Below, in pieces: positions 21,042 to 55,400 of a stretch of 64,000 bases of DNA; position 1 is the first letter of the stretch; the number at the start of each line of letters is the position of its first letter. The notes under the pieces were generated by a model. It did no database searches and was not told where the DNA came from. It saw only the letters and a program-made list of their open reading frames with translations. A program made the position numbers and the translations under genes. The stretch comes from Marsupella aquatica (taxonomy: Eukaryota > Plantae > Marchantiophyta), in assembly GCA_973895155.1 (NCBI GenBank), contig OZ316896.1, positions 17,782,754-17,846,753 of the forward strand, written 5' to 3'.

Positions 21042-21520
21042 TAATTGGCTGAACTTTAGTTCAGTAGTTGTGATGGGGGCCCAAAAATGGCCCCAACATG
21101 TATTTGTCAGATATACTTTCCTCTGCAGTACTTTTGTCTGCAGTACTTTCGTCTGCAATACTTTCGTTCCCTTTGGTGTGCCATACTTTGTCTTTTGTAA
21201 TTGGCTGAACTATGTTCAGCTATGTGATGGGGGCCCAAAAAATGCTCCCAAGATGCTTTTGTCAAAAATACATACTGACTGCAATACTAGACTGCAAGAC
21301 TAAACTTCTATACAGTTTCCTTTGTTTTAAAGAGACCAAAACAAAACACATGTATTTCATACAGTATTTGTATTCAAAGCAAGATCATGATGGCTTACAT
21401 AGGCAGAGGAAAGAGATGAGGGGGACATTTAATGATTTTGTCTTTTGTGTTTACTTCATTCTTTTGTTTATTTTCACTTTGTTCAGCCTAATGTGACCAA
21501 ACCCCCTTTGGTCACGGGCC
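21042..21520 (+). mobile_element. Intronic insertion of about 480 bp, Helentron/HINE-like non-autonomous element
   Basis: It is absent at the paralogous site in copy 2 (about 29260-29275). It has a subterminal inverted repeat GGCTGAAC...GTTCAGCC and a 3' hairpin GTGACCAAA-CCCCC-TTTGGTCAC (21493-21515). No clear target-site duplication is visible. Confidence 0.55.
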
Positions 21521-23828: not shown

Positions 23829-24636
23829 AGCATCTGTATTTATTTAGATGTAAATTTACACTTCCTCGTTTGTTTTTTGTTTTCTCAGCTTACGTTCTTC
23901 ACATGATTTCCCCAACTGAATCCTTGCTGTTGCGTTAGTCGTCGATTGCTCTGAAATCAAGAGCTCGACCCTTTGTTCGTCACTTATCTATTTAGCAGAA
24001 TCTAGCTCGCATTCATTACCTTCTATTAGATGTACATTTATTAAGTTATGTTGTCCGTTTTGCGGCTTACGATCGTCCCATGATGGGACTCAGTGGACCG
24101 AATCTGTGCTCCAGCCGTGACTTTGATGCAGTATAGCAGTATGCAATTCTAGATCATGGGAGATTTTTAGCCATTCTTGAAAGCAAAGAGGACAAGGACA
24201 CATTAGGAAGCCATCGCTAGCTTGCTTGCACATGCACAAATCCGTCCGTCCTTCAGTTTCTTTCCATGAAGTTTCTGGACACTATTCCCCATCAGAGGCT
24301 TTGAAATAGCAAAAGGATTTATTCTTCAGTTTGGAAATCTTATACACATTTCCCGATTTTGGGAGTGTCGATACATGAGCAGGTCTGAGCAGGTCTGAGC
24401 ACTTCTAGGCTGATGTCGCATTCTCTTTCATTAGACGTTCTGAAGTCTCTTCAAGCTGATGCGGAGCCTACGATTGGTTTCATATGGGCATCATTTTCAT
24501 TCTGACTTAAATATATGGAATTGAATGTTTGTAGGTAAGCATTCTGAGGCTCGGCAGAATAGGTCCACTCTGGTGCTACCTCCAAAATGGACGCCTGATT
24601 ACCAGAACAAGTTTGCAGCAATTCTAAGCCATCGCT

Positions 24637-27600: not shown

Positions 27601-30303
27601 TTCTCGAGATGAATGCATAGAATTCCCTTGTTGAAATGTATTAGTTAAAGAGCGCACAGGGTGTGAATCGATAAATCCTTGTATTTTGAATTTTAATAAG
27701 AAATAGATATGTAAGGAAAGTCTCAAAGTGAAATGTTTTCTCTCAAAGTTGATATTTTTAGAAGAGCATGGACTCTTTACCCCTATCCGTGAACGTATGA
27801 CTTATGTATATGTTGGTGCCCCTTTTTGAAATTTTTTGAAAACAGTTTTTACGGTGATTTGGCTTTCAAAAATGGTTTCATGCAAATCTTGTCTTTCGTG
27901 CTAGTTCTTCATTTTGTGCCACTTCTTTCCCCCAGAAAAGAGCCACTGGTCGTCCCATGGTAAGTAAGTTGGCAGATAGGTCTTGTTTTTAAAGACAGAC
28001 TAGTAATTCTTCTTTTGGTTTCAATCTCCATCAGCCCACATACATTTAATGAATCATCTATATGCTAGTCAGAGGTAATTTGCTGGAGCAGCTGCAACTC
28101 TGAGGGGTGAGAATATTTTAAGCAGGTTCATAGTCAATTTAAAGCTCATAACCTTGAAACTAACAGCGTGAATTTCTGTACTGTCATAGCCTTCGAGCAA
28201 GGCCTTCCACGAGGGTGTTCTGTGCGACGAGTGTTTAATGATGCCCATAGAGGGCCCGAGATTCAAGTCTAGGGTACAGTTCAACTATGATTTGTGTGTT
28301 GGGTGTTTTGAGAAAGGGGGCCTCAAAACAGAGGAGTACTTTCGTCTCGATCTACCGTCTGTAAGTAACAGTCACACCACGCAAATGATATCTTGCAAGA
28401 ATTTAAATGATTTTTAATGAGCATGTCATCTGGTCACACAAAACTCTTACTGTAGAAGGGTTCACAGCTTGACAGAAACACATTCCCATTTGAATATTAG
28501 AGTATTTTGAAAACAGAGCGCATGATCCACTTCTGGAACGAATGTCCTAAGTCCTTTACTGGAGAATGTATAAAAAGTAAATTGATAATTAAAACATATT
28601 GACGGAACATAAGAGAGCAGAATCACAACCAAGTCAGATCTTTGACGTGCGTGCATGAGATGTTTTGAAATGAATCTTGAATGTAGCTTTTTAAAGAAGA
28701 TCTGCACCTTTAAGCCTTTGCGAAGATCGTGTGGTTCCCCATGGATGTGGAGTTGTGAGGCAATCCTACTCTCGCAGGATACTACTAAAGAGGAGATGAA
28801 AGTGAATACATTAAGAAATAAACGAAGGCGGTAGTAGAGGACAGAGCAAAAGAATATGTTCTAATGAAATATCTTCATTTTATGGGGATTAACTATAAAA
28901 TTTACTTTTTACTATGGGATTTGTAAGAGATATCGGGCTATCAAAGTGGGAGGAGGAGCAAGCTTCAGTCTTATTCTTATGACCCCTTGTTCGTTTTTGT
29001 TTTTGGGACAAAGGGGTTTGCCTTATAATGAGGTTTGATGATGGGATTGAAGAAGTTATCGTCGAAAATCTTTCTAACGCAGAGCTTTGTATACACTAGA
29101 TACATGGAGCTAAATGTGTAATTGGGTTATTCTTGTTGAAAAATAACCCAATTAATATAAAACCCTAAAAAAGGAAAGATCCCATGAAGAGATGGAACGT
29201 TTCACTCCAACAAAACTGGTTTCTGGAAATGTTGGAAATGTATGTGGGGACTTAAAATTGGCCAAATGATAGAAACTTTGTCATCTGAGGAGATGTGTTT
29301 GTAGTTTCGAGGTTGTCCCTGTGTAGCCCAAGGATATCTTCTAAATGAGAAGATGAATGTGATTCCAGTTAGAAACAAAGCCTAAGATGGCAGGTTATAT
29401 CCTATCATTTTTAATGTTGTTAATCTGGGTTTCAAGGTGCAGTCTAAGACGGAAGCAGAGGACCAAGTACAAGCAAATTTAAAACGAATCATGCTCAAGA
29501 TATATTAATTCAAAGCTGCAGCCTGCATTACTTACATTGACAGTAGTTAAGCCAATTGCAACCTATGAGAGAAACTAACCTGTTGTTTGGTGCCGTGGAT
29601 GCCATTTGGTAGGACTTGCCCACCATTGAAGGAAGCACATTCTGCAAAATGCGAAATCTGAGATATCTGGGGTTGGCCCACATAGCCATTGATCAAACTC
29701 ATTGTGCAACACTGCCGTCGACACTTGTCTACCTTTGGATGTATGGGGTGCAGTTTTCTGTCTTTCCTTTCCGCCCAAGCGACCATGAGCGGATGGCCCT
29801 TCTGTACATATGGGAGTGTCCTTCGTGCCCTTCCCAATACTTTTGGCCGACTCTCATCCCTTCAAGAGTTACAAATTCGTTGGGCTCCTCATTTGAAGAC
29901 CTTGCCTGACTCGCTTGGGAGTTTGCGAAAGCTGGTAACTCTATGGTTGGACGATTGTTCTAGTTTAGCGGAGTTACCGCAAATATTTGGCCAACTGGTA
30001 GCTTTGGAAAGTTTACGCATAGGGGACTGCAATGCTCTCTCAGCCTTGCCAAAGTCGTTTGGATATTTACCCAAACTCAAAACTCTGGTTATCTCGGGCT
30101 GCCGTCGTCTTCACATCCTGCCCGATACATTCCTGGAGCTTCCAAGATTGGAGTGTCTAGTGCTAGACTGGACATATTTCCAGAGCTTTCCCAACTTGGA
30201 GAATCTTAGGTCATTGAAACATCTCGTTGTATTTCAGGAAGCTCCTCATTGTATATCGTTGTATATCCGCAGTCTATCCGATTGGCTTCGTCGCACGGTT
30301 TAG
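24637..30303 (+). pseudogene. Hydrolase-NB-ARC-ZZ-LRR NLR copy 2, with multiple frameshifts
   Basis: Same exon structure as copy 1: 24637-24702 (MGQGASSS), hydrolase from 24922, NB-ARC about 26177-27204, ZZ exon 28190-28360, LRR 29613-30303. Frameshifts occur at about 25166 (-1), 26881 (-13, giving TAA), 27146 (-4) and 29822 (-5). Confidence 0.88.
28190..28360 (+). CDS. ZZ zinc-finger exon of NLR copy 2
   Basis: Translates as PSSKAFHEGVLCDECLMMPIEGPRFKSRVQFNYDLCVGCFEKGGLKTEEYFRLDLPS, bounded by AG and GT. Confidence 0.85.
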
Positions 30304-33612: not shown

Positions 33613-34552
33613 TTCGGTTGTGTGTACACAAGGCTTCACGTTCTTGCTCTCGAGCGTTTCGGTCAGGAGAGGACAATCTAGAGTGCTTTAATAAACTTCA
33701 AACAGGTGTCTATATTTTCACAAAAGACAACTTCATAACCTACTAGCTAGACAGGTGGTTGAATGAGTTACAAAAATTCATAACCCATTGTCTCCACGCC
33801 CCTCAATGTTCACAAATATGATTTGTCCGGAAATCTAGCCAGTGATCTAAGTCTTGAGGGGCAATTATCGCACATAATGTCCTGACGACCGGGTCTTAGA
33901 TACTTTAGCCCAAACTACTCAGAGTGGTCCGAGCTGTTAGCACATAAGTGAAGCAGCTTACTCTCTGAAATTGGACTATTTTGATTGAATCTCTCGTCAA
34001 TTAGACCACTTCGATTCAATCTCTGCCCTTTGAATCAGTCAGCGTCCATTCTATCTCTGCCACGTAATTCAGTCAAACAGCTTCAAAATGACAAAATTTA
34101 AAGAAAGAAACGGCTTTGCAAAAAAATATTTTTCACTTATAAGTTAGGGGGGTCAAACCTTAAAATGTCGCACGCGATGTATGGCCCTCCATATAATGAC
34201 CGACCCCCCCCCCCCCCCGCGAGCTAGAGATCCATGAAAATTTAGCCTTCCCAGGTAACTTGATGTTGGAATAGTTACCCGTTCCCTATGTGGTTGGTTG
34301 ATCTGGGAGATTTGTAGAAGGCAGTCCCAGTCAGAGACAAATGCACCAAAAGTACATTGAAAACTCGAGTTGCAATGAAAACAATCTACTTTATTTATAG
34401 TAAACTCTCTCATGAGATATGTAGTAGTGTAGTGGAACCTGAGAGTAGGATCTGGAGGTGAAAGATATTATTATTGTTGCACCATTCGGGAGAATGTTTT
34501 TGTTGAATATTGCCTACTGTAGAATGTTTGCAGTTCCATACTTCTTTGTGCA

Positions 34553-34741
34553 TTTGTGCATTTCCATACTTCTTTGTTAATTAGCCTGGGAAAATGTCAA
34601 ATTACCAAGAGATTCTCCTACCTGGGTGTGGGACCAGTTTTCAGTTTACACAATTTGTGCATTTCCATACTTCTTTGTTAATTAGCCTGGGAAAATGTCA
34701 AATTACCAAGAGATTCTCCTACCTGGGTGTGGGACCAGTTT
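34553..34741. repeat. Tandem duplication with period about 101 bp
   Basis: tttgtgcatttccatacttc...ctgggtgtgggaccagttt occurs twice. Confidence 0.9.
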
Positions 34742-35597: not shown

Positions 35598-35703
35598 GTT
35601 GCTTTATTAATTAGTTTGCAAACACCACCTCCAGGTCAATCTGCTTTTCTATGTTTGCAGATTGACCTGGAGGTGGTGTTTGCAAACTAATTAATAAAGC
35701 AAC
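35598..35703. repeat. Perfect 47-bp inverted repeat with a 12-nt loop
   Basis: 35598-35644 is the exact reverse complement of 35657-35703. Confidence 0.95.
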
Positions 35704-38168
35704 TCACTCTTTGTCCACATCACTGTTTAAACTGAATCTCTCATCAATTGGACAGCTTCGATTCAATCTCAACCTCGTCAATCACACAACTCGAGTCAAT
35801 TACACTGTGTACTAATATATCAATTCAGGTTTAGTTAAGAACTGGGATTTATTTCTCTTTCAAACACAACACTCCTTTCAACACAAACGAAAATCTGCAC
35901 AAGACTCGGCATAATTCCGTGCATGTCAAGCAAAATTATTTTTTATTATTGTATCGTCACACACGTACTGTAGTATGTGGGTCCATTGCATGGCAGGCCA
36001 TAACTTGTCAGCGGAAGAATCTTGGGGAAAAGAATTGGATATCCTAGTTAAAATATAATACAAGGTTGCCAAGGGGTCAAATTTGCAGTGTCCAAAAAAA
36101 TTAATCATGTCAAAGAGAAGGAATAAAGACTATATTAAATTTAGTGTGCACCAAAAAAGTAATAAGTGCATTCCAAACAAGAGGGGAATCGAACGGGACA
36201 CACAATGCCAATGGAACACACAAAACAAGGGAGCGAATGCACATGCATGAATATTAAGTAGGTTCCTGATCCATACACAAGAAATACAAAGATACATAAT
36301 GTATGTGATATTGCATAATATAAAATGATAATAATTTAATTAAAATAGATTAATTAAACACAATAGGTTAGATGATAGAGAGAATGTCAAAAGCTATAAT
36401 AAAATGTTATTTTTTTATAGCATGGTAGTCATTCAAATTTGCAATATCCCAAACATGAAAAACATATATGAAAGAATCTAACCAACGAGAAGTAATAAAA
36501 CCCCAAAAAATCAATATTGTGAATGAAAATGGAGAGCAATGTTTCCAAGCAAAAAATGAATCTAATAGTACAAAGAAAATAGGGAGGGTCTCTAGCAATG
36601 CAGGAGTACCAAGGAGACCTCCCTTTGCCATATACCACTATAATTCTTATCCTGTCCCTTTACAAACTAAAGAAAGTGAGAATCAATCTTGAATGTTCAT
36701 CAAAACTTAATTTTTTTCCACGCTGTCAGATCTATCCATACACCCCTTTTAAAAAATGCCCAAGATACCCTTTAACCTTCCCATACCTGCCACAATGAAA
36801 AAATTAATCAAATTTTAAATAAATCTATTCATATATAAATATAATTCTATTTTTTTGAAATAATTTTGAATATAAACAAAATATATAGAACATATTTTCT
36901 TATCTTGACATCTTTTCTTCATATGAAGATCTTCTCACCTCAAGATCTTTGCTCATCTTGACATATTTTTCCGGGTATTTTTCTCACCTCAAGATCTTTT
37001 CTCACCTCGACATATGTCTTTTCTCTCCTTGACATGTTTTTCTCTAATCGACATATTTTTCTCATCTTGCCATCTTTTCTCTCCTTGACATATTTTTCTC
37101 AGATCGGAATGTTTTTCTCTCATCGACATCTTTTTTCACCTTGACATATTTTCTCACCTCAACATGCATCATTTGTGCAATGCACAAGTATCAAACCCAA
37201 GATGTACTTAACAACATCTTTTACTTCACAACATCTTTGACTAATGATATACTTTATCTATTGACCATTTGTACTTAACAACATCTTAATACATAACGAC
37301 ATCATTGACTACATGACATCTATTTACTTGACAACAATTTTTGATGACCTTTTGAGCAACATGCCATCTTTGGTAAAATGACTTCTTTTTCTTAACAACA
37401 TCATTTTACTACATGACATCTTTTAGATAAGAATATTATTTTTGGGAAACAAAACATATTTTCTCTTAAATCACCCTATTCATTAAAACTGGAATTTCTC
37501 TAGTCCAGAAGTTGACCTTCAAATTTCTTATTTTACCCCCAAAAGTTCTATAACTTGTTGCCCAAAAGCATACATTTTAGTGGCCAAATATACACTTTTT
37601 GAAGTCTAAAATTACAATTCTAATGCCCAAATTATTAATTAAATAATTCAGTTATCAATTATTAATACTTATTAATTAAAAGACATTAAAGTGTTCTTAT
37701 TATATACAATCTAAACAATGAAAAAATAGAATAAGACAATATAATAAATTCAAATGACCCTGATAACCAAGTTACACAAAGTAACACGGAAGGTAAACCG
37801 GTGATGTATTATAAAAGTAAAAAACCTATTTTTACAGGGTCGAGACCACGTCTGCCCCAATGCAGGCTCTAGATGGTTTTGACCGGTTGTTGAATGTATA
37901 TCAATTACTATGTAAAAATCTATGTCAAGATTATCTCGACCCAAATGTAGGGTCCACATAATTTTGACCCGTTGTTGAATCTATATCTCTAGCTATTCCC
38001 TTTGTATAGGGTCTAGACCCAAATAACCTTTTTCTGAGAACATATCTACAAGTAAATGAGAGCATCTAGACTCAAATGGATAGTACGCATAGCTTCACTC
38101 TTTTTTCGAGTAAGAATATGTATATGTACAACTCACATCGTAACTGTTCAGTGTAGGGTCGAGATAAT

Positions 38169-39443
38169 CTAGACCCAAATCTCATGCTCCTCCACCCCGC
38201 AGAATTCATTTGAGCAAGTAAATCTAGACCCTGACGGGTCATATTTCATATCGCGATTACAGAAATTGAGAGGCTTTCTATTCCAAAACTTTGTGGTGAG
38301 GTCCCTACACCTCAAGACTTCCAAAACAAATCCCCGATGATTGTCTCTGTAGGGTCCTGTGTACTGATATCCAATTAATGTCTTTGCAAGGTCGTTGATT
38401 GCCTCCTCCGTCAATTCCTCCATTGGTGGTAATTGTTGCACTTCATTTTTGATATCCCAGGGAATTTCGTCCGCTGTAACATCCATGACTGTATGGATAA
38501 CATTGGGAACCCATACCATACTACCCCACCTCTCCGACAACAGAGCATAAATGGCAGCCTGTTGATCCCTGTCCGATAAAACATTGATCATAGACCACTT
38601 TGGATGATTGATAAAAAGATAGTGCTGGAGATTGAAGGCATGATACAATTTCCTGAGCAGAGGCCACAGTATTTCTGGAAAGAATGTATCATCCGTGGAG
38701 TGATGCAAAAATGAGGAAGGAAACAACCCACAATTCTCTGGATTTGCAAACGCCTTCATTGGAGTGTCATCAAGAAGGAGTGTATTAGTTTCGTCGTATA
38801 ATCCACCATAACGTTTCCAAACAACCCTCAAATCCTTCAAAAGAATATTTGCCTTCCCATCGGTAATGTCAGGCCTCTGGATTCCAGTATTGAATGTATC
38901 TTCTTGAGTAAGAATAAACTTGAATTGCTCTCTCTCTTCTTGATTGAAGATCAAATGAATCATTTCATCCGTCCTGGGTTTCCTTGCACAAGTCCAAATG
39001 GCAACATCAAATAATGAAAAAGCTGCGATTAAGAACTCGTGAAGATGGGGTCGCTCAACATACATAAAGTTAAACCCTCCACGTCTCCCCCAATGGACAC
39101 CATTGACACTTGTCGCACTACGGCGCGGTCCGGAACTTGGCGTTTTGACAGAATCCCAGCACATTTTGTTGAGGTCAAGAATCAATAGCTTCCGTCTGAT
39201 CGGACCGTGAAGTGGAGGCAAGGGTCCTGCAAAGTAGGAACACCAACGTTAGAATTGTGGGAGATAAAACAAAGGAATGCTCGAGATGATCTCGAGCATC
39301 ACAAGTGAATGAACAACAGTCAACATCATACCTGTTGTTTGTGGAAGGTCAGTAGTTGAAGAAATCTCAGGACATCTTCGGAGATTATTGTCGATGCACT
39401 CCACAATTGGTAAGGGCCCGCCTATTTCTGTGAAGGTAGACAT
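38169..39443 (-). CDS. FCP1/NIF-family HAD phosphatase-like protein (transposon cargo)
   Basis: Exon 39443-39332 (phase-1 donor AG|GTATG) joins exon 39226-38169 (TTTGCAG|). Motifs: RKLLILDLNK (variant of DxDxT), ERPHLHEFL, FDVAIWT, LKDLRVVW, NTLLLDDTPMKA. A C-terminal Cys cluster is present. Confidence 0.8.
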
Positions 39444-39497
39444 AATAATTTAGACGGCTGAATTTCCGGACAGTTCAAACTAACTTGGGTTTCAACC

Positions 39498-42400
39498 TCA
39501 CGTGCTGAAAGACCCAAATTCATCTAGAAGGTTATCTCCTAGTTGGCTTTGGATGTCCAAATTTATCCCTCCGGGAAGGGTCTCAACAAGAGCTGGCTCA
39601 GACCAAACTGGCACTAATTTGAACTTATCCATCCTATACTTTCTAGATCGAATAATCTTCTCAGACTGCTCTATAGAGACTTGTTGACCTTTTGACGGTC
39701 CATCAGTCCAAACATAATGAGTAGCACTTGCTTTGAGTGATTTGTAACCAGTTCTACCGATTTCAGTCCTCGGTTTCCTAACAAAAGGGAGAATTACGGG
39801 GCTTCCAATAGAAAAATTTGTGAAAACAAGCTTATTCTCTGAAGCGCAAAACATTTGGTCCAAGGGAGAGGACGATGCACCTGCCTCGTCCTGAGGGGGA
39901 GTATGGAAGCCACTAGCTTTCTTAGTAGAGAAAATCTCATCCAGTTGAGGAGGGCTTGGAATTGGTTGGCTAACTGCATCCTGCAGGGTGGATTCCCAGC
40001 CAACATCCAAGGATGAAGACTGTTGTTCACGTTGTGCATCCCCAAGGCCACCCGATGAAGGAACACTTGGAACATCGAGATCATCTCGAGCATCATTTCC
40101 AAATTCAGGGAGTATTTCACCCTCCTCTTCCATGTAGCTTGTAATTTTCGGGCCCTCCGTTTTGCGATGCTCTAAATTCTCCGCAAATACTTCCTCATAA
40201 ACACTGGCTTCCACTGGAGCTATGTCTGCGGCCGCCTCTTCTATAAGAACGAGGGGACCAACAGTAATTTCCTCAGATGGTAACGGCTCCTTGGGTGGCA
40301 CATATAAAACTTGCTTGTTGTCATGAAGGAGCTGAGCAAAGGCTTCTGTGAATTCCATCTCTTGAGCTGTGTCCGAATACACAAAACAATCCCGACCAAG
40401 AATGACACAAGCTTTCAATGTCTGTCCTCCAGAGAAGAAATCCAACACTGTATGACCTGGGCACGAGAAATAATCAACAAGACGCTTTGTCATTCGCAAA
40501 GGCTTTGCTCTCGGATTTACAAAGCCACCACGCCGGCCGACCATCTCATAAGATGGGGCCATGTTCTCCAAAACTTCGACATCAACAGTGGATTCATCGA
40601 GCTTCTCTTTCCCCTTTGATTGGTCTTTGTTGTTCCCAGTAGGGGCCTTCAAAGGCAAGACTGTGAAGTCTTTGTCCCACTTCTCACTGTAGCTCCAGAA
40701 CGCATAAAAGTCATCAAAGAAAATTTGGGACCAGTCTGGTTCCTCTTCACAACAAATTCCCCCAAAGATGATTGAGTCCCGAGCTCCAATGAGAAAATCT
40801 CCCTCCTCCTTGGGCACCTGATCACGGTAGTAGCTCCCGTACTCCAGCTTCGTGTGCACTTTCTTCTCACGATGAATCTTTTCAAAGGCACTCTGAATCT
40901 GGCCTATCAATGGGCCTTGACGGACAAAAAAGATTACTAAGAGCTCCGTCGAGTTCGCCATCTGCAAGCAATACTCCAGCAAGACAAAAATTTTGGCATC
41001 TGTCCACTGCCATTGTCAAATACGACCAAAATTGACAATGGAGAGTGGACACGTCCTTTGCACCGAGTCAACAACCTCAGGCTTCATTGTCCTCATCAAA
41101 TTATCGCTAAAAAATGTGCGATAAGGAGTATCCTCCATTGAAGGCAATCCGCCAAATACCTTGCAATATATCTGCTCAAGCCTCACAATGAGACTTTGCG
41201 GAAATGGGTCTTTTGGCCTATTTCTTTTTAGGAGGTTGGAAATCCAAACCTCTCCAGCAAGTTGTCTAAGTTTGGGCAACTCACCACGATCCATAAATGC
41301 AGGCAACAATTGAGTTAGCTCAAACCAAGTGAGTGAATTGGTAAACCGATCCGGATACTTCAAAACGAAGTACTCCACAATTTTTACCCTCAGCTTGGTC
41401 ATGACTTTGAAAGTATGAGCCATATCACTCATTGATTGAATATCAGATTTGTTGGCTGGGTCTTTCTTCAAGAAAACCTTCTGTTGTTGAACGGCAGTAA
41501 AAACTTTCAGAATGTTGTCATTACTCAGGTCTCCTTCAAAGCATCTAAACAATGGCGGCGTAATCATTTTTGTTGTCCGGGCTTTCCCGTTTATTTTTGA
41601 ACCTAACTCCCCTAGACCATCTGGAAGAAGTCCCTTGACCCAATCGATGCATATTTGTCTCCAAGTTTGGAAGAGGTTCTCATCCGAAAACAACAACCAA
41701 AAAATATTCCTCAGATCGGATTTTCCAGTCGTTATTTTGGCAAGGGCCATAAAATCCTGGTCCAAACAGTACAAAACAAATCTGAGGCTCGAGACGATCT
41801 CGAGGTAGAATTAAGGAACTATGGTAAAATTTATGGGGAATACATGAAGATAAATCAAATACAGAAACTTGACCTCGAGGCTCGAGACAATCTCGAGCTC
41901 GAAGTGGATTTGAGTTCAAATATACCTGGAACTTTTGATGATCCGTTAGTCTATTGGACCCAATCACGGGTCTCTCCGGACGGCCACACTCGTCAAACTG
42001 TCGACGCGCATGGACCATAGTATCAAGAAAACAGGACTCATACTCCATTGTCTTATTAACAGCATTTGCCCTTTGTGAGTGTTGAGCAAGTATTGTCCTT
42101 GGAGTTCTGTCCGAAAGAATTCGTGACTTTCGATATTGCAGACTCTTCGCGACCTCCTTCAACTTTGCATCGCTCTTAGCCCAACCTATGATCCAAACAG
42201 CTGCTTTTGCCGAGTGTTGTCCACTGATTGCAAGGAACTGCACCTTCTTATTCTTAACACCCCACTCAAACTCCTTTCGATCCTCAGCAGTATTCTCATA
42301 ATGGAGCAACTGCAAACTCTCTCTTGAATACGGAATTAAATCTGCCACAGCTGGTACCATTCCAGGGTTTCTAACCATGGATTTTGCGACCTCCATGGCA

Positions 42401-44420
42401 TGGTCTTTATTGAACATCCTATAAACCAAAACTGCAGATGGCGAATCTATACTGGTGACAGGAATGTCAAAAGTTTTATTCATGCCAAATGTGTAATACT
42501 CCTCAATCTCCTTAAGAACTTCGGCTCCTTCCTTAACGCTCTTTTCTCCCGGAGCATCTCCTGGAGTGCCATCATCATCGGTATGTGCATTCACACCCGA
42601 GGAAGATGCCGGAATGAGATCTACCTTGGGCAATGCAGACTTTTTTGGCGGATGAGCCTTCTTCGATTTGATTTTGGGTTTGTCAACCCTCTTCCTCTTT
42701 TGAGACACCTTCGCTTCCTTTTTGTCCGAACCGGAGGTCTTGTCTCCTGCAGCTACGGATTTCACTTTACCTGTTTGTCTCCGATGAGACAACACCCACT
42801 TTTTACAAGCATCCTGGTCAAATTCTCCGGCTCCAAACACAAAATCAGGGGATATAGATTCAAACTCCCCCAATTTGGATTCCAACATTAGTCTCAAAAC
42901 CTTCCACGTGAAAGGAGTCGTGAATGCATCATCGCGATCAAGCCCATACTTCCGACAATAAAGGAATCCAAAAATTATGTCCGCTCCAGATATAGGAGTA
43001 TCTTCTAGCAAATTACTTGTAGTAAAACCCTCGGGGAAGAAACCCATTGATATCACGCTCAGTTGTTTCCTGGTTGCACGTTCAATGTTAAGATCGCAAG
43101 AGTAGTTTTTGGCGTGAAGTCTAATTAGAGCCCACTTCCCTGTTTCGTGGTTCTCCACCGTCAAAACCATGTCCTTACCGTTACTCGTCACAATAGAAAC
43201 AACAGGCCCTAGAAGGCTGCACACCAGAGGATCGACTGATGGAGACCTCGTCTTCACACAAATAATAGTTCCTTCCATGTCTTCAGTTTCAGCAAGCTCA
43301 ATGGCCCAACAGAATCCAAATAAACTCTGTCCAGGGCAGGAAATCTCAATTGCATGTTCATCTTCGACTACCAAATTAGGCGATCCCAATTTCGCACCTG
43401 GTATAGCAAAAATGTAGCAATTGTCAGGAACATGTACTACAAAACCAAGAAACAAATAGGTGGCTCGAGATGATCTCGATCTTCAGTTTACTATTCAGAC
43501 ATGTTCCAATGCCATTTCATCCGTGGAATTTAAAAAGAGATTTCAAACCCAAGAATCCCAGGAAACACAATAGGCTTGAGATGATCTCGAGCCACCATCT
43601 GTTTAAAAGAAAAAGATAAGGGCTCGAGATGATCTCGATCCACATATATATCAGTTGAGGCTTTATTCCAACTGGTCCAAAAGGCAAGCTTGGATCACAT
43701 TGAAAAGGATATTAGTAATTGAAGTAGACAACAAGGAGTCCTTCCAACTGGAAGAAATTGGCCAAGGGAGATGAATGAACATAAGGGAAGACGGTGTGGG
43801 ATATATTCGGCTCGAGACGATCTCGAGCCTAACATATCAAATGAGTGATCTGAATATCATATTCAACAATTAACATCATATTCAATCAACGATAAAAAAT
43901 CCACTTTCTCCATTAACTTCTGATACCCACAAACCCGTTCGGATGTCAATGATCAGAACGAGTTGGAGGGCACAAAAGTCCTTGGAGGAAGGAAATTTTA
44001 GATATTTTGGATATGATGTTCAATTTTGAAGGGTAAGGGTTTCCAACTTGAAGAAATCTCACTAGGTCACATGCAGGAATTGCATATTGGCTCGAGACGA
44101 TCTCGAGCCTCATGCCACTTCCATCAAATGCAAAATCAATTAATAGATCACAACTTTTGAAACAAAGTATTGGAGAAAACATCAATAGGCTCGAGATGAT
44201 CTCGAGCCTCAATGGCATCCAAGGAATCCAAAAACAAGTGGACCAATTGAAGCTCGAGACGATCTCGAGTTAAACCTGAACAGAACAAAGATGAAGAATT
44301 ATGTTTAATGGTGCGATGGATCTGATGTGCTGAGTCTAGATGGGTTTGGAGCTCTTCGCCAACGGTTGCAAGGTTGTACTCAACGAAGTCCTCCTTGGAG
44401 AAATCTACAACAGTCGACAT
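39498..44420 (-). CDS. About 1290-aa protein with a ParB/Srx-like domain and an N4/N6 DNA methyltransferase-fold domain; one in-frame TGA
   Basis: Phase-compatible exons are 44420-44276, 43397-41926 and 41756-39498. FLAISGQHSAKAA resembles the ParB-type GxHR motif. NPRAKPLRMTKRLVDYFSCPGHTVLDFFSGGQTLKACVILGR matches the HPxxKP..LI..S.PG..VLDPF.GSGTT..A...GR block of beta-class N4/N6 MTases. The TGA at 41016-41018 is in frame with the downstream ORF. The C-terminal tail is acidic and likely disordered. Confidence 0.65.
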
Positions 44421-44689
44421 GGCCGGTGATGAGAGGAACGTACTACGGGCTGAGAACTTAAAAAAAATCTCAAGCCTAAAAAGAAAATCTCGACCCTATC
44501 GAAGCTCGAGCCTAAACACAAAATCTTGACCCTATAAAATCTTGAGGAAAAAACCTAATCTCGATCCTTTGCAATCTCGAGGCTAATAGAAGGATCTCGA
44601 GGCAAGAGCGCGAAACGATCTAGAGGCAAGGAGGCAAGGGACGCGAGGAGGCGAAGAGGCAAAGAGGCGAGGAGGCAAATGTGAAAATG

Positions 44690-45070
44690 GGGAATTCAAA
44701 ACCCCTGAAGCCACTATAAGCCCCTCGGGGGTCGGCCTTGGCCGTGCCAAGCGTGCCAGGCGTGCCAAGCGTGCCAGGGCTCGTGCAGGCTCAGGCAGGC
44801 TGCCACGCAACCTGCTGGGTGCATACAGTCATTATTACGGTCACACGTGTTGTCATTATTGTTATCCGTACTTCAGCCCTGCCGCAAGTTTAGCCGTGAC
44901 ACAAGTTCAACCATTCCGTCTTATTGCCCTTTTTGTCTGTCAGGGTTTTATATATTGCTTCTCCTTGCTCTTCAGCGGGTCATTCTTCTCATTTTGTTTC
45001 ACCGCTCGCTCATTTCTTCCTCTGCCTCTCTGCTCTCTCTCCCTCTCCCTCTCCCTAGCTCTAGATTTGT
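44690..45070. promoter_or_regulatory. Putative bidirectional promoter of the transposon
   Basis: Lies between the divergent ORFs. It has a GC-rich core with four CGTGCCA(A/G)G repeats (44743-44779), a TATA-like TTTATATAT at about 44947, and CT-rich leader tracts on both strands. Confidence 0.5.
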
Positions 45071-45579
45071 GCTCTGATCTCTTTCTGTTGTTCTTTTCAA
45101 GGGTTTTGGAGTCTACGTTTGTGTTTAGGATATTTTGAGAAATTGTCATTTTAAGCCCCGAAGGAGGTCTAAAATAATTGAGCTCCTATCTTTTAGAAAA
45201 CCGAACCTTTTCAGCTTATACTAATGTCGGTCAAAATCCATTTGGAAGCCTTTTCCCTCTATTTGATGGCCTTTTAGAAGCTTTTTCTCAGTGTCTGGAA
45301 GTAAACTGGGAGCCTACTTTCTTAATTGCACCAAATCATTCCTCTAGATCATCTAGAGCCATTTATATGTTCTTATTTTGGGTGGCTTATTATTCCTAAT
45401 AGTTTCTTTGTCCAATACAATGTCCTTTTTGGCTCGAGATCATCTCGAGTCATAAGTTTGGTCCTCAAACTTATTCACTTTCCCCTTCTTTCTAATGGTG
45501 CATTTGGTTTTCCTTCTTATAATAAATGTTTTTAGAGTGTCGGAGGTATAGAATCTTAGTTTGATATTCAGTGAGATTC

Positions 45580-45810
45580 ATATTTTACCTCGAGATCGTC
45601 TCGAGCTAAATACTTCTGAATTTTTACATATTGGTGTTTTTGGTCCCTTTTCTACCTCGAGATCGTCTCGAGCTAAATACTTCTGAATTTTTACATATTG
45701 GTTGTTTTGGTCCCTCTTCTACCTCGAGATCGTCTCGAGCTAAATACTTCTGAATTTTGACGTATTGGTGTTTTTGTCCCTCTTCTACCTCGAGATCGTC
45801 TCGAGGTAGA
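45580..45810. repeat. Tandem repeat of 66-67 bp (about 3.5 copies), each carrying the palindrome
   Basis: The unit tacctcgagatcgtctcgagctaaatacttctgaatttttacatattgg...tttttggtccc repeats. Confidence 0.9.
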
Positions 45811-45937
45811 AGAGCTTCTTATTTTCTCTATCACACAATTTTGTGGGATAAACTTCTACACTTGGGTTTTTGTAGTCACTTTACCTCGAGATCATCTCGA
45901 GGTAACTACATCCAACGGTTTGGGCCACGTTTTCAAA

Positions 45938-46933
45938 ATGGGGAGTTTCTCTCGAGGGGACAAGGTGTGCCTCGTAATCGATGGAGTGGAAGTTGCTTGC
46001 GGGACGGTCCTCAAGGTTGACCCGGGTGACTCAGTGCGTAATGTTGATTTGGGAAGTAATCATATAGGAGTTCTCATTGAGAAGTGCTATGAGGGATCAC
46101 GGGAAATTCCTTACCCTTTGCCGCCGATCAGGACCCTGTTTGATGCTGTCGACTCTTGCATTATTTGGGATGCCCCTTTTGCATATTTGAAGTCACAGTC
46201 AACTCCAACGACAACGAAAATGGATGCCTCCTGTTCTACAAAGGATACGGTTCCGGGTTTTGTACCAGAGAAATCGTCGGTGGAAAGTTTTGGAGACTCG
46301 ATTGTATCTGGCGATGAAGTCGAGGTCTGGATCGGCAATCAGATTGTGGCTCGTGGATTTGTGTTCAAGACGAATCCCGATGAGACATGTCACAATGAAA
46401 GACTTGGCACTTCTAGGATTAGTGTGAAAATATGTGAAGTTTTTCAAGGAAGGGAGAGGTTACCCTTTCCTCACAATGGAGCTGATACCGTTCAGGAAGC
46501 ATTGGATACTTTTGTATTGTGGAATTTAAAGGATGTTACTCGGAGGAGTTCTTCCCGGGATATGCTAAACAACCTGTCCAGACAGGATGTTTTTTCAAAT
46601 TATAATTTCAAGGATTATAGTTTGCGTTCTAATTGGATGACCGAGGAGGCGGAATTGTATGCTGAGGATAATCGGACCAAAGTGGGGGTTGGCATCATCA
46701 CAGTTCCTTTCGAGTCAGGTGCAATTGATGATGATGTTCTTGGACCAGATCATGTTGGGGTTGCTGTCACAAGCGTGATTGATCCTATATTTTTCCCACA
46801 TATCTCCCCAGGAGTGCCTGGTCTTGTTAGGTGGGCCGTCCGTTCACTTTTGCTGATATCAAGGGGTATTTTTCTTCTGGATTTCATTGAAGAGGTTTCT
46901 CCGAAACCATTATTGATGGTCGAGATCATCTAG
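45938..46933 (+). CDS. Transposon protein with three tandem Tnp1/En/Spm-like (DUF8039-type) domains; probably the 5' exon of the transposase
   Basis: Three repeats follow the pattern VA.G.V....P....H...LG.....V.I..V......LP.P.....T..DA....I.W. A phase-0 intron at 46895-46968 would join this ORF to the transposase ORF. Confidence 0.6.
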   Translation: MGSFSRGDKVCLVIDGVEVACGTVLKVDPGDSVRNVDLGSNHIGVLIEKCYEGSREIPYPLPPIRTLFDAVDSCIIWDAPFAYLKSQSTPTTTKMDASCSTKDTVPGFVPEKSSVESFGDSIVSGDEVEVWIGNQIVARGFVFKTNPDETCHNERLGTSRISVKICEVFQGRERLPFPHNGADTVQEALDTFVLWNLKDVTRRSSSRDMLNNLSRQDVFSNYNFKDYSLRSNWMTEEAELYAEDNRTKVGVGIITVPFESGAIDDDVLGPDHVGVAVTSVIDPIFFPHISPGVPGLVRWAVRSLLLISRGIFLLDFIEEVSPKPLLMVEII

Positions 46934-46941
46934 AGGTAGAT

Positions 46942-49626
46942 ATGAAAGGTGACACTGAGTTTTTGAAGCGCCCATATAATTTCATCAAGAGAACGAAGGT
47001 CAACCCAGATGAAAAAAGGAAGAAGCACTTGGAGTCTCGGGCGATACTGAAAATCACAGAGGAGGAAATCGACTCCATCCAAAGAGAAGGTTGTTGTAAG
47101 TTGAAGTGTTGCCTCAGCATGCCGAGAGAAGACCTACAGGAGATAAGGAGGGAATACCATGGGATGTCAAGCGACAACAAAACCAGTCACATTCTCACTC
47201 TTTTTGGCTGTAGGGAGAAGGAAGTGGAGACAAAAGGATATTTTGTTGTAAGAAGTAGACTTGTTTGCAAGGGTGCATTTATTAAAATGCATGGATTCAG
47301 CACTGCCAAGTATTATGATTACAAAAATCAATATGAAGCAGGTTGCACGGTTGGATTCCACGGAAACAAGGGTTCACACAAGACACGGGGAAGCACCTTG
47401 CATGCTCGTGCTTTGTTGGAGTCCATTCTAACCCAAAACGGAGAACCCATGCCGCATCTTCCCTATGGAGGGTCTCACGGGACTGACACAGTTGAGTACA
47501 GACTTCCATCTTGTTTCACGAAGAAAGAGATTTTTGAGGAGGTATACTCAAAAATGGAATTAGATGGCTACGTGAAGGTGAGTGAAAACACTATGTATAA
47601 ACTCTGGAGTGAGTCCTTCATGAATTTTGACTTTCACAAGGGAAGTGCATTTGCAAAGTGTACACTTTGCACTGAGTTCAAAGATCAGTTGATGCGGGAG
47701 AAGAGAAAGAAAGAGCGTTTAGAGATTGAGGAAAGAAGAGCTCGCCATCTTCGTGAGCAAATGTCTAGGAGATATGTTTACTATGCTCATAGGGTTCTTG
47801 CGAAGAAGGATCCTAAGAACTATCTTTGCATTATACATGACAAGATGGACCAGGCCAAGACATGGATCCCTAGGTTGGTCCCCACTCCTAAATCATTGTC
47901 TGGTAGTGGTCAATCGCTCCCCATTGCGCTCACTGGGATGTTGACCCATGGAAGGGATCCCGGAGTGTATGCTCACTTCAGTTTTACTGGGCTTTGGCCA
48001 GGAGATGCAGACTTCACAGTGACATCATTGGCCAAGTGCCTTAGAGATCTGGAGGATTACAAGGGGGACAAATCTGGAGACCTCCTTGAAGGATTATATT
48101 GGGCTGCAACGAGGCCAATTTTTCAATCTCTTTTGGACTTTGAAGCATTTCTCGCAGGTTACTTAGAACCCAAAAAAGTCTCAATTGCTAGATTTCAAGG
48201 AGCTGAAGATGACCAAGACGACTTTGGTGTTGATCCCAAGGCTATGTCTACCTCTTTCAAACCATTGCCAAGGCACCTGACCTTGCAAATGGATAATTCA
48301 GGGAAAGATAACAAAAACCAGTACGTGATGGCATTTTGCAGTGAGCTTGTTAGTAGAGGGGTTTTTGAAACAGTGCAGATGTTGTTTCTCATGGTTGGTC
48401 ACACCCATGAGGATGTCGATGCATTGTTTTCAAAAGTATCCAACCAAGTGAAGTACAAGGAGGTTTCTACCCTCTTGGGGTTGATGGCTGAGGTTTGGGA
48501 GTGTGAAAGCATTCATCCTGTGCCACGGTTGATCCAAGAGGTTGCAGCTTACAAAGAGTTTTTGAAAACTTTCAAGGTAAAAGACATAGAGGGTCACTCA
48601 AAACCAGTGGCATTTCTTTTCTCTATGAGAGATAATGTTCCAATATATCAATACAAAGCACATGTGAAACAACCTTGGTACCCTCCAACCGGAAGGTCCA
48701 TTTGGAGAACTGATTCCAGCACCAATGCTCTCATTTTACCAGAAGGTCAACCGTTTGCAAAACCCATCTCCGGGGATGTACGAGGCAAGGTTGAAGAAAT
48801 CATCCCATTCCTTAATCGTTACATTGAGTTTTTGAAGAAGAGCTGTAAGGATGAGACCTCTACAGCATATCGTGAGCGGTTTCCTTTGGTGAAATATTGG
48901 GAGATGGTGGTGCAAGTATTATCTGGGGAGCTTACAATTGAAGGGGAGGCAGAAATACAGTTAGCATTGACATATGAATTCTGGCCAAAAACTAACCACG
49001 GAACTGGTTACAAGGTTAATAGTACAGGAACCTCTGAACCATTGGGGGAGCCTAGTAGTAGTACACAGAATCCACAAATGGTGGAGCTTCAGAATGAGTA
49101 CCTGGAAGAGATGGAGGATCAAGTTGCAATATTTGTTGGTGCTCGACACGAGCGAGAACTTGCACGTTGGATTCCTCTGCAGGACATTCAAGAGGGTCAC
49201 TTTGTATTTCTCCGTCCAGAGGATGAATGGGAAAAGAAGAATGGGAAAGAACGTTTCTGGTTGGTGAGAGCTTTGGGTGTTGTGGACCCAAACCATGAGG
49301 TTCCTTCAGGAGACTTGCAATGCAATGAGAATTCTCCTACTAGTACACGGTATGCTCCTATGTTCCAAGTGCAATGGTGGAGGCCTAAACATGGTAAGCA
49401 TGATGCACCGGATCATGTGCGATATTCACGTTGCTTTCAGACCACTAAGACTTGGGAGGTGGATCCTGGGTTTGACAGTGCCACTGAACGTTGACAATTT
49501 GCTAATTCTGCTATGTATGGATTCAAGTCACGCTCTAGAGAAGAAAATATAATTGATAGAGGTTTGACCATTCCCAAGAATGTTTTGAAAACACTCAAAA
49601 CCTACATGGAAGGGATTGTTGAGTAA
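46942..49626 (+). CDS. Sola-like (DUF7869-type) DDD/E transposase with a C-terminal SH3/Tudor-like domain; in-frame TGA at 49492
   Basis: Motifs: CCKLKC, VCKGAF, CTLC, IIHDKMDQAK, LQMDNSGKDNKN and FLMVGHTHEDVDALFS. The C-terminus has GHFVFLRP..RFWLVR..FQVQWWRP. The reading frame stays open 43 codons past the TGA, to TAA at 49624-49626. Confidence 0.8.
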
Positions 49627-50469
49627 GTCAAATGTTTTTTAGTAGTCACTCTGTCAGAGTGAGGGAGTCTAGTATGTCAATTAGTTTGGAATTAGACATG
49701 TCAGAGTGAGGGAGTCTAGTATGTCAATTAGTTTGGAATCAGACATGTCTTTAGTACTTACTGAGTGTTGGTTAGTACTAAGGACTAGTATATCTATTTA
49801 AGGAACTAATTATTATAATATTTTGGGATACTAGTTTGAATAGGTGCAGGTAATTGGACTTGGATACCTTTATAATTGCTTTAATTAATTATTATATCAA
49901 TACAGACTATATATTACATGAAGTCTTAATATCCATGATAGGATGTGAGTGCCTCTTAGTACTGTCTAGTAAACCTTAGTTTCAACTCGAGTTGCTTAGA
50001 ATGTACTAACAAATTACTTGTCTGAATGGATATTTAAACTAAACCCTAAGTAGAAGGTTAATTTAGCTAGCTAAGGGTAGAGATCATATTGAAGCTTTAC
50101 TAGTTATATGGGTAGAGATCATATTATTTGAAGCTTTACTAGTTATATGGGTAGAGATCATATTGAAGCTTTACTAGACACTTATATTCTATTAGTCAAA
50201 TTGAATCAATGTAAGTAAATTCTACTTCTTATCCAACATATTTTACATTATTATCACCCAAATGTTTTTCTTTAGAATCCAAATTAATATTTCATTTTCT
50301 CCTATGTACAATCTTGATCCCCCAAATGTACAACATCTGGTGCCCAAATGTACAACTCCCACTGCCCAAATGTACAATTCTTGTGCCCAAATATATATTT
50401 TTTGGTGCCTAAATGTCCAAAGATCAAAGAATTTTCCAGTTTTAATGAATAGACTGATTTAACAGCATT

Positions 50470-50828
50470 TTGGGCGCCACAACACTTTTCTCTTAGCAAC
50501 ATCTTGCGGGACACGACATCTGTTTTCTTAACGATATCTTGGGCGCCACAACATGGTTATTTTAACTACATTTTGGGCAACATATGTTTTCTTACCGACA
50601 TCTTTTGTGGAACGCACAGGTATTTCCCCTCAACGATGTCTTGGCTGAGACGACATCTTTTCCCTCAACAATGTCTATATCAACATGACATCTTTTTTTT
50701 CAACAATATCTTGACCGACAATATATACTTTCTCTCAACAACCTATTGGCCAACTCGACATACTTTTTTCTCTACGGCATCTTGACCGACACGATTTCTT
50801 TTATGCAACGCATGGGTATTGAGCTATG
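50470..50828 (+). repeat. Minisatellite block ending in a Helitron-like 3' terminus
   Basis: Reverse-complement homolog of 11507-12300. It ends ATGC-AAC-GCAT (hairpin) followed by GGGTATTGAGCTAT. Confidence 0.6.
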
Positions 50829-50946
50829 AAAAAATAATATTGGGTAGGGTGGCCACGAGCAGCTGCGGGCTAGAGGCCACCATCATCGGTTTGGATAGCC
50901 GCAGATCTGCACAGCTTGTTCATTAGATCCACTCCTGCATACAGAG

Positions 50947-50957
50947 TTTATATATAG
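50947..50957 (+). promoter_or_regulatory. Candidate TATA box of NLR copy 3
   Basis: TTTATATATAG precedes a block (gtggatcgcctc...gtgagt) that is conserved upstream of copies 1 (about 14850) and 4 (about 62555) and looks like a 5' UTR exon. Confidence 0.4.
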
Positions 50958-52421: not shown

Positions 52422-55400
52422 ATGGCTCAAAGGGCCTCTTCTAGTCGCACCAATAACACAATTACTCAGGTATCTTACGGCACTGACCTCGACCTGAACC
52501 TGTTTGGAAAATGCCCGTTCCGTTTAGAGATTGATACTTTGGACAGTTTGCAATGATCATGAGTATTTTAGTTTTTGGAGTTTTCAGGTTTTATCCAATC
52601 TATACAGCTAATTTCTATGCCTACCCGTTGGCGTGCTTGGGTTTTACAGCTTAATGAATCTCTCTTTGAACTTTACAAACCGAAAGGCCGTGCTAGCATG
52701 GTGGTCTTGTTTTTTCACGGCTTTCAGCATGGAAATTATGAAAATGCCTATTTGTCAACATGGACAACTGACGATGGACGAGAGGATGGATCATCCACAT
52801 GGCCCCAGACTTGGTTGGTTGATGACGACCAGTACCCCGATGCTCACATCCTTTCTGTTGAGTATAATGCGAGCTTGATGAAAAGCAACCAAGAAGGAAG
52901 CTCTGACCTCTACGTCATAGGGGAAAATATTATTTCTGATTTGCTAGAGGCAAATATTGCGCAAGATCCCCACTGTCCCATAGTATTGGTAGGACACAGT
53001 TTTGGGGGCCTTGTAGTGAAGGAACTGTGTGTTCAAGCACATAAGAGAGGCAGCATGGGTAGCTCCAAGCACAAAACCTTTCTGGAAAATATCAAGGGGG
53101 TATTTTTCTACTCCACCCCTCATCATGGGATTTCAGGAGAAATTTCCGAGTATTTTGTGAGCAAAACAAATGAACCCTTGTTGAAATATGTGAAAGTCCT
53201 GAGTACTTCTGCAGCAAGATTGCATGAAGATTTTGAAAAGGTACGAAAGCAGTGCGCTTGGCAGACGGCAGGAGTAGGAGAAGGTTTACCTACCCATCTG
53301 GTACGGGGCATTCACTCTCAATCTTATGAAATGAAAATATATTGAAAATCTCTGACAGCTTCCAATTATTTGTAAAGCAAATCAATGATAAGATATTACT
53401 TATAGACGGTAAACATTTTCTCGATTGTTGACTAATTTGTTTCAGTTCATTCCATAGAACTGATAGAAGAAGGAAATGCGCAGTAACAGTCTCATTTCTA
53501 TGGATACCACCTAGTTTAGTACTAAGTCATCCAAGTAGCATATAAGGGAGTTGATCAAGAGTAATTTGTGTGAAGGATATTGTAGATGCTTCATTCATTG
53601 GATCGTCACTTGCTTGTTTGCTTGTATGTGCGCAGAGCACATTTAAAACAGCGGTAATTGTACAGGAGGGATCGTCAAGATATGGAGACACCTTTGTTAT
53701 CGTGCCAGAGGCTGATCACATATCAATCTGTCGGCCAAAATCAAAAATCTCAAGAACATTCAAGTCCTTGTCCAGCTTCCTGCGTGGAGTTTCCATTACT
53801 TGGAAGGTGAAGTCAAATTGTCGCTCATATTTTTGGCGTACTTAATACAGAAGGTAGTGCTATGTCGCTTTGTGTCCACCGGTGCTTATTTGAGATTTGC
53901 TTTGTATTCATTGTTGAATTACAGAGACCAGTCCGGCCTCAGAACCGTCAATCTTTACCCAAATCAACGATTGGTATTGATAATGTCATGAAAGAACTGA
54001 AACACAAGCTTGAGACGGTCACCAGTTTGGGCCTGGCAGGCATGGGAGGGATTGGAAAGACAACCATGGCCAAGGCGTTATTCAATGATATTGAGCATCT
54101 TTACGGGTACACCTGTTTCGTTGGGAATGTGAAGAATTTTGAACAGGAGGTTGAGGATATCGTCTTAAAGGAAATGCATCATATGGGAAGGAGGTTAGCA
54201 GAGAAGCATGGTGGGTTAGAGTTCTTGGAGGGGAAACAGTTATTGTTGGTACTGGATGATGTTGCTGCAAAAAAACAGACTGCCATATTGTCTACCTTGA
54301 TTCGTGACATTGGTGTCCATGTAGATAGTCGCTTTGTTGTAACATCGAGAGATTGCGAACTTCTAGATCAATGCTTGGAGGCAGTGCACAGCATTCCCTT
54401 TCTAAGCCAAGGAGACGCGAGGAAACTTTTGTTAGCCCATGCTTTCAGGCAAGAAGCTTCTCCTTTATTTGAGGAACACATAGACATTGTTGTGAAAAAG
54501 TGCGGCGGGCTGGCTTTGACTCTGGAAGTCATAGGGGAGCATCTGTATAAAAAACCTCTGCCTATATGGAAGGAAGCTGTCACTATACTAGAGAGGGCAG
54601 ATGCTGTGCGCGGATTTGACGAAAAGTTGTGGAGTAAGCTTCGGATAAGTTTTGATGGTTTGGATCTTGAGGAGAAACACGTGTTTTTGGATTGTGCGAC
54701 AGTATTCTATTTGCAACCTCTAGATAGGGCAAAGATAGCATGGAGCGTCACCACAAATGGGCTTCAAGAGACACTGTGGCAACATCTTGTCGACTTATCG
54801 TTGGTCTGCGAACTTCCTTCGGGAGAATATCAAAGTTGTTGTGGCATGCATGACCAACTTTTGAGCCTTGGGAGGAAAATAGCATCAAATGAAGTGGAAT
54901 ATGGCCTCAGGATGTGGGATCACCCGAGAAGGGCCTTCCTTTTGTTATCGCCAGATAATTCCATTGACAATGATGTGAAGGTGAGTTTGAAGAGTATGGT
55001 CTTTATCTGAGAATTTCCATGCACTGCATCCAAGAATTGCCCAGGGGTTTGTATCTTGGCCATTATTGAATGCTGCATGGTGTAGACCAAGGAAGGTCTC
55101 CCATGCTGTTGAATTTTCTCAAGACGTCACTGATATTGAGGAATATTCCACTTTGATCATGGACAGGGCTACGTGTAGCAATTGGGTTTTGAAACTAAGA
55201 ATGACTTGTGAGTTGGAATTTGTAGGACATTACTGCTATCAATGTGGATGGACGAGCACAAGGACATTTAAGTAATGACAAGGTTTGTTGGTGGCATTTT
55301 GAAAAAGATAATATGGTCAGTGGAAACGTTATAAGACAAGACTTCTATTGATGGATCTTAGAACTAAATGGATACTTGTGATTTCCTTTTTGATAGTAAG

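Follow-up and report, generated by a model that had tools for sequence, protein, structure and literature searches.

We analysed a window of 64,000 nucleotides (nt) from the liverwort Marsupella aquatica (assembly GCA_973895155.1, contig OZ316896.1) that contains a damaged transposon at 37470..50458. The element is a multi-copy, TTAA-targeting plant DNA transposon, and its cargo includes a protein that combines a ParB-like fold with a DNA-methyltransferase fold. With moderate confidence, we propose that this accessory protein binds the 19 palindromes of its own element and likely keeps the element transcribed, probably as a binder that does not methylate. By analogy with described elements, and with a similar degree of confidence, the transposon can be viewed as a self-recognition system of the kind represented by VANC or by the ParB-methyltransferase genes of algae.

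Two genes diverge within the element, as an initial annotation of the window had proposed: a transposase gene on the forward strand (45938..49626) and a spliced open reading frame (ORF) on the reverse strand (39498..44420), hereafter gene 1. The region 44421..45300 between them carries half-sites of the palindrome and a GC-rich tandem repeat, has no full palindrome, and is likely a divergent promoter. Gene 1 was expected to encode about 1290 amino acids (aa) and encodes 1291 in three exons (44420-44276, 43397-41926 and 41756-39498), all joined at GT-AG introns. Homologs P0020 and P0110 are contiguous across the junction of exons 2 and 3, and the metagenomic locus L009 is interrupted by an intron at that junction. 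The protein consists, in order, of a PH-like domain, a Lys-rich linker, a ParB/Srx-fold domain, a helical region, a beta-class methyltransferase fold, an acidic linker and a C-terminal domain.

We scanned for the palindrome CTCGAGA-NNN-TCTCGAG (17 bp, at most two mismatches). The 38 strand-matches correspond to 19 sites, close to the 20 or so first reported, where 0.08 were expected and none of 100 shuffles equalled that count. The sites occupy 39280..46935 and start at 39280, 40074, 41788, 41881, 43464, 43575, 43623, 43811, 44091, 44190, 44253, 45342, 45433, 45589, 45656, 45723, 45789, 45885 and 46919. A scan with a relaxed core returned 21 sites, all within the element and none elsewhere in the 64 kb. 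Two variants of the palindrome are found at 37925 and 38159. Although coding sequence (CDS) makes up 67% of the element, 17 of the 19 palindromes lie outside it, the other two being those at 40074 and 46919 (p = 5e-7; this value and the one for orientation are overstated because the copies are not independent). The centre reads TYR on the sense strand in 18 of the 19 sites (10/11 on the left and 8/8 on the right), and the orientation flips at the putative divergent promoter. Most copies have unrelated flanks, and they are spread over five separate non-coding regions; three sit inside a 67-bp tandem repeat. At the level of single sites, the flanks of the palindrome at 45789 lengthen it to a perfect hairpin whose arms measure 16 bp (45773-45821), and the palindrome at 45342 has symmetric changes in both arms.

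All 19 palindromes fall in presumed transcribed regions and 18 are sense-oriented, which is also what one would see if they worked as hairpins of the nascent transcript, in its introns and 5' leaders, and were bound there as RNA. They do fold strongly (z -6 to -9), but both strands fold about equally, the local 67-bp duplication accounts for the shared orientation, and fusions with a ParB fold normally bind DNA. We regard an RNA target as very unlikely.

The palindromes of intron 2 could be followed in four public runs. The one at 41788 has no arm change at a share of at least 8% in any run. In X2 and X6, a subfamily of higher depth aligns over this palindrome and its flanks only, not over the remaining intron. 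The one at 41881 has three CpG transitions. Protein P0109 (50% identical) reads into the same intron and carries two peptide signatures of the palindrome; among all 139 homologous proteins such signatures number 3, where about 3.7 would be expected, and only their position is informative.

The ParB/Srx-fold domain is predicted at 42046..42501 on the reverse strand, with the signature ISGQHS, a motif named in the initial annotation, at 42228-42211 (residue 439). It went undetected in Pfam, PDB-sequence and NCBIfam searches, in which DndB alone appeared at E = 0.03. A structural model built from 33 sequences, with a predicted local distance difference test score (pLDDT) of 80-96 over residues 301-440, gave as top VIA matches PadC (Z 8.2, root-mean-square deviation 3.5, 100 aligned), KorB (7.8) and a serine kinase (7.5), followed by pNOB8 ParB (6.9), SbnI (6.3) and sulfiredoxin (Srx; 6.3). 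The serine kinase and SbnI share the ParB/Srx fold. In Foldseek searches Noc, ParB and Srx lead in the PDB (prob 0.95-1.0 for the top matches Noc and ParB) and phage ParB proteins lead in BFVD. The ParB/Srx fold ranks first in three structure libraries, and the ParB-like identity assigned at first is supported, at the level of predicted structure, by this consistency rather than by one strong score.

The same domain departs from canonical ParB proteins in its signature. The motif is G-Q-H-S, with Ser in the arginine position in 30 of 30 rows, whereas the clamp signature ends in Arg (GCHR in Srx, DGQHR). In the available part of its description, the Srx His-Arg pair contacts the beta and gamma phosphates (PMC4619093). 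Because the arginine is lost throughout the family, CTP clamping by this protein, and with it the parS/ParB clamp module of the initial annotation, appears doubtful. R328, N331, R424, R427, N446 and N449 are conserved in the family, so these Arg and Asn residues may form a changed ligand pocket. An Atlas search with the ParB part (41968-42546) returned DUF3723 and ParB_N look-alikes. The best was a fungal cluster, 31% of whose members have DUF3723, and basidiomycete and mollusc clusters came next; ParB-fold cargo may be widespread in eukaryotes.

The beta-class N4/N6 methyltransferase fold lies at 40293..41120 on the reverse strand. PF01555 (N6_N4_Mtase) matches with E 2.3e-6, above the cut-off and covering motifs X and I only; the family profile matches M.RsrI at 2e-8, and hhalign against nine prokaryotic beta-class domains gave about 97% probability with the fold and the IV..X-I motif order. 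The SAM-binding block proposed initially is present as the motif I sequence LDFFSGG (40445-40425, residue 977). Motif I (DFFSGG) is strongly conserved, the Lys of motif X is found in 60 of 62 rows, and the acid of motif II in 18 of 54. At the position of motif IV (41033-41022) this copy has NFGR and its relatives D-F-S/T/A-R, typically DFSR. Asp occupies the first position in 42 of 47 rows, replaced by Asn here, and PPY/F/W follows in none of the 47. Among the compared proteins, the catalytic motif (D/N/S)PP(Y/F/W) was found solely in the bacterial protein P0086.

These motifs bear on whether the protein methylates DNA. Since the SAM-side motifs are kept and the DPPY loop is lost, a pseudo-enzyme that binds DNA or acts as a scaffold is more likely, and we consider it the likeliest state on motif evidence. 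DNA methylation is doubtful because the loop is replaced in every aligned sequence, and the suggestion that the module marks the element loses its catalytic basis. The literal model of the initial annotation, which is also the proposal made for the algal proteins, is that the enzyme works through a remodelled site and deposits N4-methylcytosine (4mC) or N6-methyladenine (6mA) at the palindromes or near them. The retained motifs X and I and the Asp of motif IV would suit such an enzyme, as would the two TCGA words in each palindrome, TCGA being a target of bacterial N4C enzymes in the available text of one report (PMC8885841). The missing PPY/F/W, the poorly kept motif II acid and the Asn of this copy point the other way, and there is a precedent for an inactive methyltransferase fold borne by a transposon in DIRS1, as far as the accessible part of that paper goes (PMC4738411). 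An active enzyme seems improbable to us. Judged by the motifs tested, the cargo proteins would fall outside the active amino-methyltransferases, the canonical ParB CTPases and the FCP1-type phosphatases.

Two smaller domains frame gene 1. The N-terminal domain (42919..43368, reverse strand) has a PH-like fold by a weak structural match (Z ~5) and is kept in six homologs. Its match to the SANTA domain of M18BP1 (Z 5.0) is tied with many PH/PTB domains, and its Atlas matches are of low recognition. Of the 139 proteins, 9 match the small conserved C-terminal domain (39501-39905). The five Riccia gene models in which the methyltransferase fold runs into a NIF domain are not among them, and the domain could serve to dock a separate NIF protein.

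Such a protein is encoded next to gene 1. The gene (38169..39443, reverse strand; exons 39443-39332 and 39226-38169) starts 54 nt past the gene 1 stop and encodes a NIF/HAD-IIID (UBLCP1-like) phosphatase fold of 389 aa. The initial annotation was right about its position and about the NIF fold (PF03031, E 1.3e-16); the FCP1 kind was not recovered, as HAD-IIID (1.9e-13) and UBLCP1 (1e-9) outrank FCP1 (6e-4), all of them below the NCBIfam cut-offs. FCP1/SCP phosphatases carry the motif DxDxT/V, which is absent: motif I reads DLNKM in this copy and DVEGL in all five relatives that cover the position. From these motifs and matches we find no support for the C-terminal domain (CTD) of Pol II as the substrate, as had been suggested.

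The transposase gene encodes N-terminal repeats followed by a DUF7869 core (E 2.1e-43 in Pfam) with CxxC and D..D..E/D blocks. We take its DN..NKN and GH.H/S blocks to resemble those of Sola. Sola3 elements have a 4-bp TTAA target-site duplication (TSD) and GAG termini. The TSD of our element agrees with this, whereas its termini, ATCA..TGAT, are unlike those of Sola3 and of the Ectocarpus element Sola1-1_Ec32. The label Sola-like is drawn from these motifs and the 4-bp TSD. Subterminal CCCAAATGT-type repeats, five at 50257..50394 on the forward strand and two more at 37538 and 37940, form a set of motifs distinct from the palindromes and are likely the sites of the transposase.

The palindromes could instead be bound by the N-terminal repeats of the transposase, which would then activate its own gene while the ParB protein has another role. 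The N-terminal part has a weak match to Transposase_23 (E = 0.15 in Pfam), and transposases acting as sequence-specific activators are described in the available part of a recent preprint (10.64898/2026.08.24.746577). Yet the element ends carry a different repeated motif, the last 3.5 kb have no full palindrome, and in red algae ParB genes adjoin inverted repeats in elements of another superfamily. We think it unlikely that the transposase is the binder, and continue to favour the ParB-fold protein.

The boundaries of the element are well defined. It spans 12,989 bp between TTAA duplications at 37466..37469 and 50459..50462, and its terminal inverted repeats (TIRs), at 37470..37495 on the forward strand (first bases ATCA) and 50433..50458 on the reverse strand, are identical at 23 of 26 positions. 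The empty-site joint 37465->50459 is present in public contigs of runs X2 (two contigs) and X6 (one contig). The element therefore has the TIRs, TSD and empty site of a cut-and-paste DDE DNA transposon. The extent first proposed, 38158..49626, lies inside this one transposon; the true ends are wider, and the TTAA duplication had been overlooked. Nested independent insertions were ruled out by the cargo order kept in Riccia and the single pair of TIRs and TSDs. Kolobok elements combine a TTAA TSD with 5'-RR..YY-3' termini (PMC9587614), and membership was rejected because the termini here are AT..AT, despite the shared TSD. The insertion target is an array of ~35-bp units of another abundant repeat (36000-37469 and 50459-50950), whose depth is high in X1 and X2.

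The Marsupella copy is dead, as it carries two premature stops and one frameshift, damage missed in the initial annotation. Codon 786 of gene 1 (41016-41018) is a stop through a CGA-to-TGA change, and position 41018 is G in most of the depth of all four runs. An intron at 41016 was considered and ruled out in favour of this point change. The transposase has a frameshift at ~46908, where one extra base is present in run X5 (90/90 depth) and in part of X2 (3039/6130), and not in X1 and X6; a stop follows at 49492-49494. The four runs cover all 30 bins of a 16-kb stretch, so related copies of the element exist; depth drops over the non-coding parts in X5 and X6.

We compared the cargo with homologous proteins. 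The helical and methyltransferase part is matched by 97 representative proteins and exon 2 by 10, and 30 of the 33 matches to the ParB profile are genes of Riccia sorocarpa, on seven chromosome-scale sequences. Homologs with a named source come from Riccia sorocarpa and Calypogeia fissa, and relatives are expanded in both genera. Five of the 139 proteins, all of them Riccia gene models, have the methyltransferase fold followed by NIF, and three of these also have ParB in front. This order in Riccia argues against chance nesting and bears out the prediction that the genes co-occur beyond the present copy, for the methyltransferase and NIF cargo. The cassette is old and its order is kept; its tie to this type of transposase is seen within this family only. 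In a quick tree, 34 family rows fall on one side of a branch and nine prokaryotic references on the other. No match was found in a first homolog search among longer proteins, and no relative in scans of viral contigs or in a first metagenome scan; a second metagenome scan recovered the eukaryote-type locus L009 and a bacterial DPPY enzyme (L010). A tblastn search of phages with P0100 gave no match, and the methyltransferase part matched phage methylases weakly.

Several observations weigh against binding of the palindromes by a ParB-methyltransferase protein, and some of them would suit a neutral history in which local duplication produced the palindromes incidentally and the cargo genes simply ride along. 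The placement of motif IV, where DFSR falls on DPPY in three of four hhalign runs, uses low-confidence profile columns because the predicted fold of that half is poor (single-sequence, pLDDT 38). The ParB Z scores are modest, 8.2 being the best, and Foldseek gave no match at E <= 0.001. No contig spans the element in the other public runs, transposase sequence was found in 0 of the 139 homologs, and the linkage of three genes is seen only in this copy, plus parallel depth in the four runs. Retention of CpG is mixed: it is high in coding sequence near the sites (0.8-0.97) and low in the distal transposase (0.34-0.68), but masked introns show depletion as well (0.27-0.49). Conservation of the arms in intron 2 is not significant (3/28 variable arm positions against 30/135 others, p = 0.2), and the intron that L009 (28% identical) has at the same position contains no TCGAGA or TCTCGA word. 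The last two points, together with the three sites in the 67-bp repeat, favour the neutral history; against it stand the unrelated flanks of most copies, their avoidance of CDS, their spread over separate non-coding regions, and the conservation of the cargo (25-45% identity, invariant residues, order kept). We regard a neutral origin as very unlikely and retain self-binding by the gene 1 protein as the preferred reading.

In this preferred reading, the ancestor would be a prokaryotic ParB-methyltransferase fusion, a dimer of which would bind the two-fold site TCGAGA-N3-TCTCGA. The helical region that follows the ParB domain lies in the usual place of the helix-turn-helix (HTH) in ParB proteins. 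The methyltransferase fold would then have kept its SAM-side motifs and lost the DPPY loop to become a DNA-binding or scaffolding pseudo-enzyme, which may shield the CG-rich sites or recruit chromatin factors, as VANC does for VANDAL. The NIF-fold protein would have been inherited together with the gene 1 protein as its partner, and its active site is atypical. A broader version is tentative and, to us, on the doubtful side: transposons across the Marchantiopsida and Jungermanniopsida may carry a prokaryote-derived cassette in which a ParB fold docks on family-specific palindromes and spreads, a methyltransferase fold shields or reads CG-rich sites, and a nuclear phosphatase-fold protein is the partner. 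If true, land plants would have in this cassette a second anti-silencing system that evolved independently, and its site code would differ from one family to the next.

Around the element, the flanking genes on both sides (16490-30303 and 52572-57879) contain pieces of alpha/beta-hydrolase (DUF676/PGAP1-like), NB-ARC and leucine-rich repeat (LRR) genes, with a ZZ zinc finger at 55660-56109 in the right-hand cluster. To the left of the element are a perfect inverted repeat of 47 bp whose arms are 12 nt apart (35598-35703) and an exact 89-bp direct duplication (34552-34741). An ORF at 7155-7670 of the window matches DUF7725.

We compared the element with known systems. The initial annotation knew of no description of this combination; published accounts of a Sola element with ParB-methyltransferase cargo, and of ParB cargo with inverted repeats next to it, put forward the same self-targeting hypothesis. 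Sola1-1_Ec32 of Ectocarpus has an opposite-strand gene for a 1104-aa protein with ParB and N4/N6 methyltransferase domains, for which self-binding and self-modification were proposed in the available part of the paper (PMC12477816). The likeness is one of architecture only: both are large DNA transposons with a 4-bp TSD and a ParB-methyltransferase gene opposite the transposase. The Ectocarpus element differs in its brown-algal host, its length of 21.5 kb, its AACCG termini and its 282-bp TIR, and the accessible description reports no phosphatase gene, palindromic sites or loss of the catalytic motif. A Bostrychia preprint describes, in its available text, PF01555 and ParB-like accessory genes (PAG2/PAG3) with adjacent inverted repeats in red-algal Plavaka elements, the repeats beside the ParB gene being proposed as its sites (10.1101/2025.02.11.637652). 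Plavaka differs in that its transposase is of the EnSpm type, ParB and methylase are encoded by separate genes, as fusions to 2OG-oxygenase and SET, and the repeats form tandem arrays and are not dispersed; a NIF gene is not reported in that text.

The VANC-like layout suggested initially holds for motifs that are oriented and lie in non-coding DNA. For VANC and VANDAL in Arabidopsis, binding and demethylation were shown experimentally, and both systems have an element-encoded accessory protein and short motifs that are dense in introns and upstream regions, in a single orientation and partly in tandem (PMC5735166, in the part available). VANDAL is a MuDR-type element with a 9-nt non-palindromic motif, and the same text does not mention a ParB or methyltransferase domain. 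Bacterial ParB, Noc and KorB (with parS, NBS and OB sites) and phage ParB-methyltransferase fusions share with gene 1 the ParB/Srx fold and dispersed two-fold sites of 16-17 bp, and the phage fusions also share the order of ParB before a beta-class methyltransferase. Gene 1 differs from them in the Ser at its signature arginine, the lost DPPY, its introns and the lack of a ParA gene. Marchantia DN4MT1a/b, to which the initial annotation had drawn a link, and bdelloid N4CMT likewise have a bacterial-type beta-class amino-methyltransferase fold in a eukaryote. By their available descriptions they are active host genes that keep SPPY (TSPPY in the Marchantia enzymes) with no ParB domain reported, and in view of that motif the link is not supported.

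A literature search with most subscription papers outside its reach found no liverwort or land-plant element with this cargo, a NIF partner or family-wide loss of the catalytic motif. Transposons with ParB-methyltransferase cargo have already been recorded in brown, red and green algae, and the available accounts of them offer only hypotheses. With our element come a candidate site defined to 17 bp, a land-plant lineage that includes tractable liverwort models, a large number of divergent families, and a prediction that differs from the published one, namely binding without methylation. If true, it would show a bacterial or phage site-docking module recast as a self-protection device of a transposon, and could give a sequence-specific chromatin tool. 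In land plants, the element represents a variant of a system that had been proposed earlier for seaweeds, and its palindrome is a clear candidate for the binding site.

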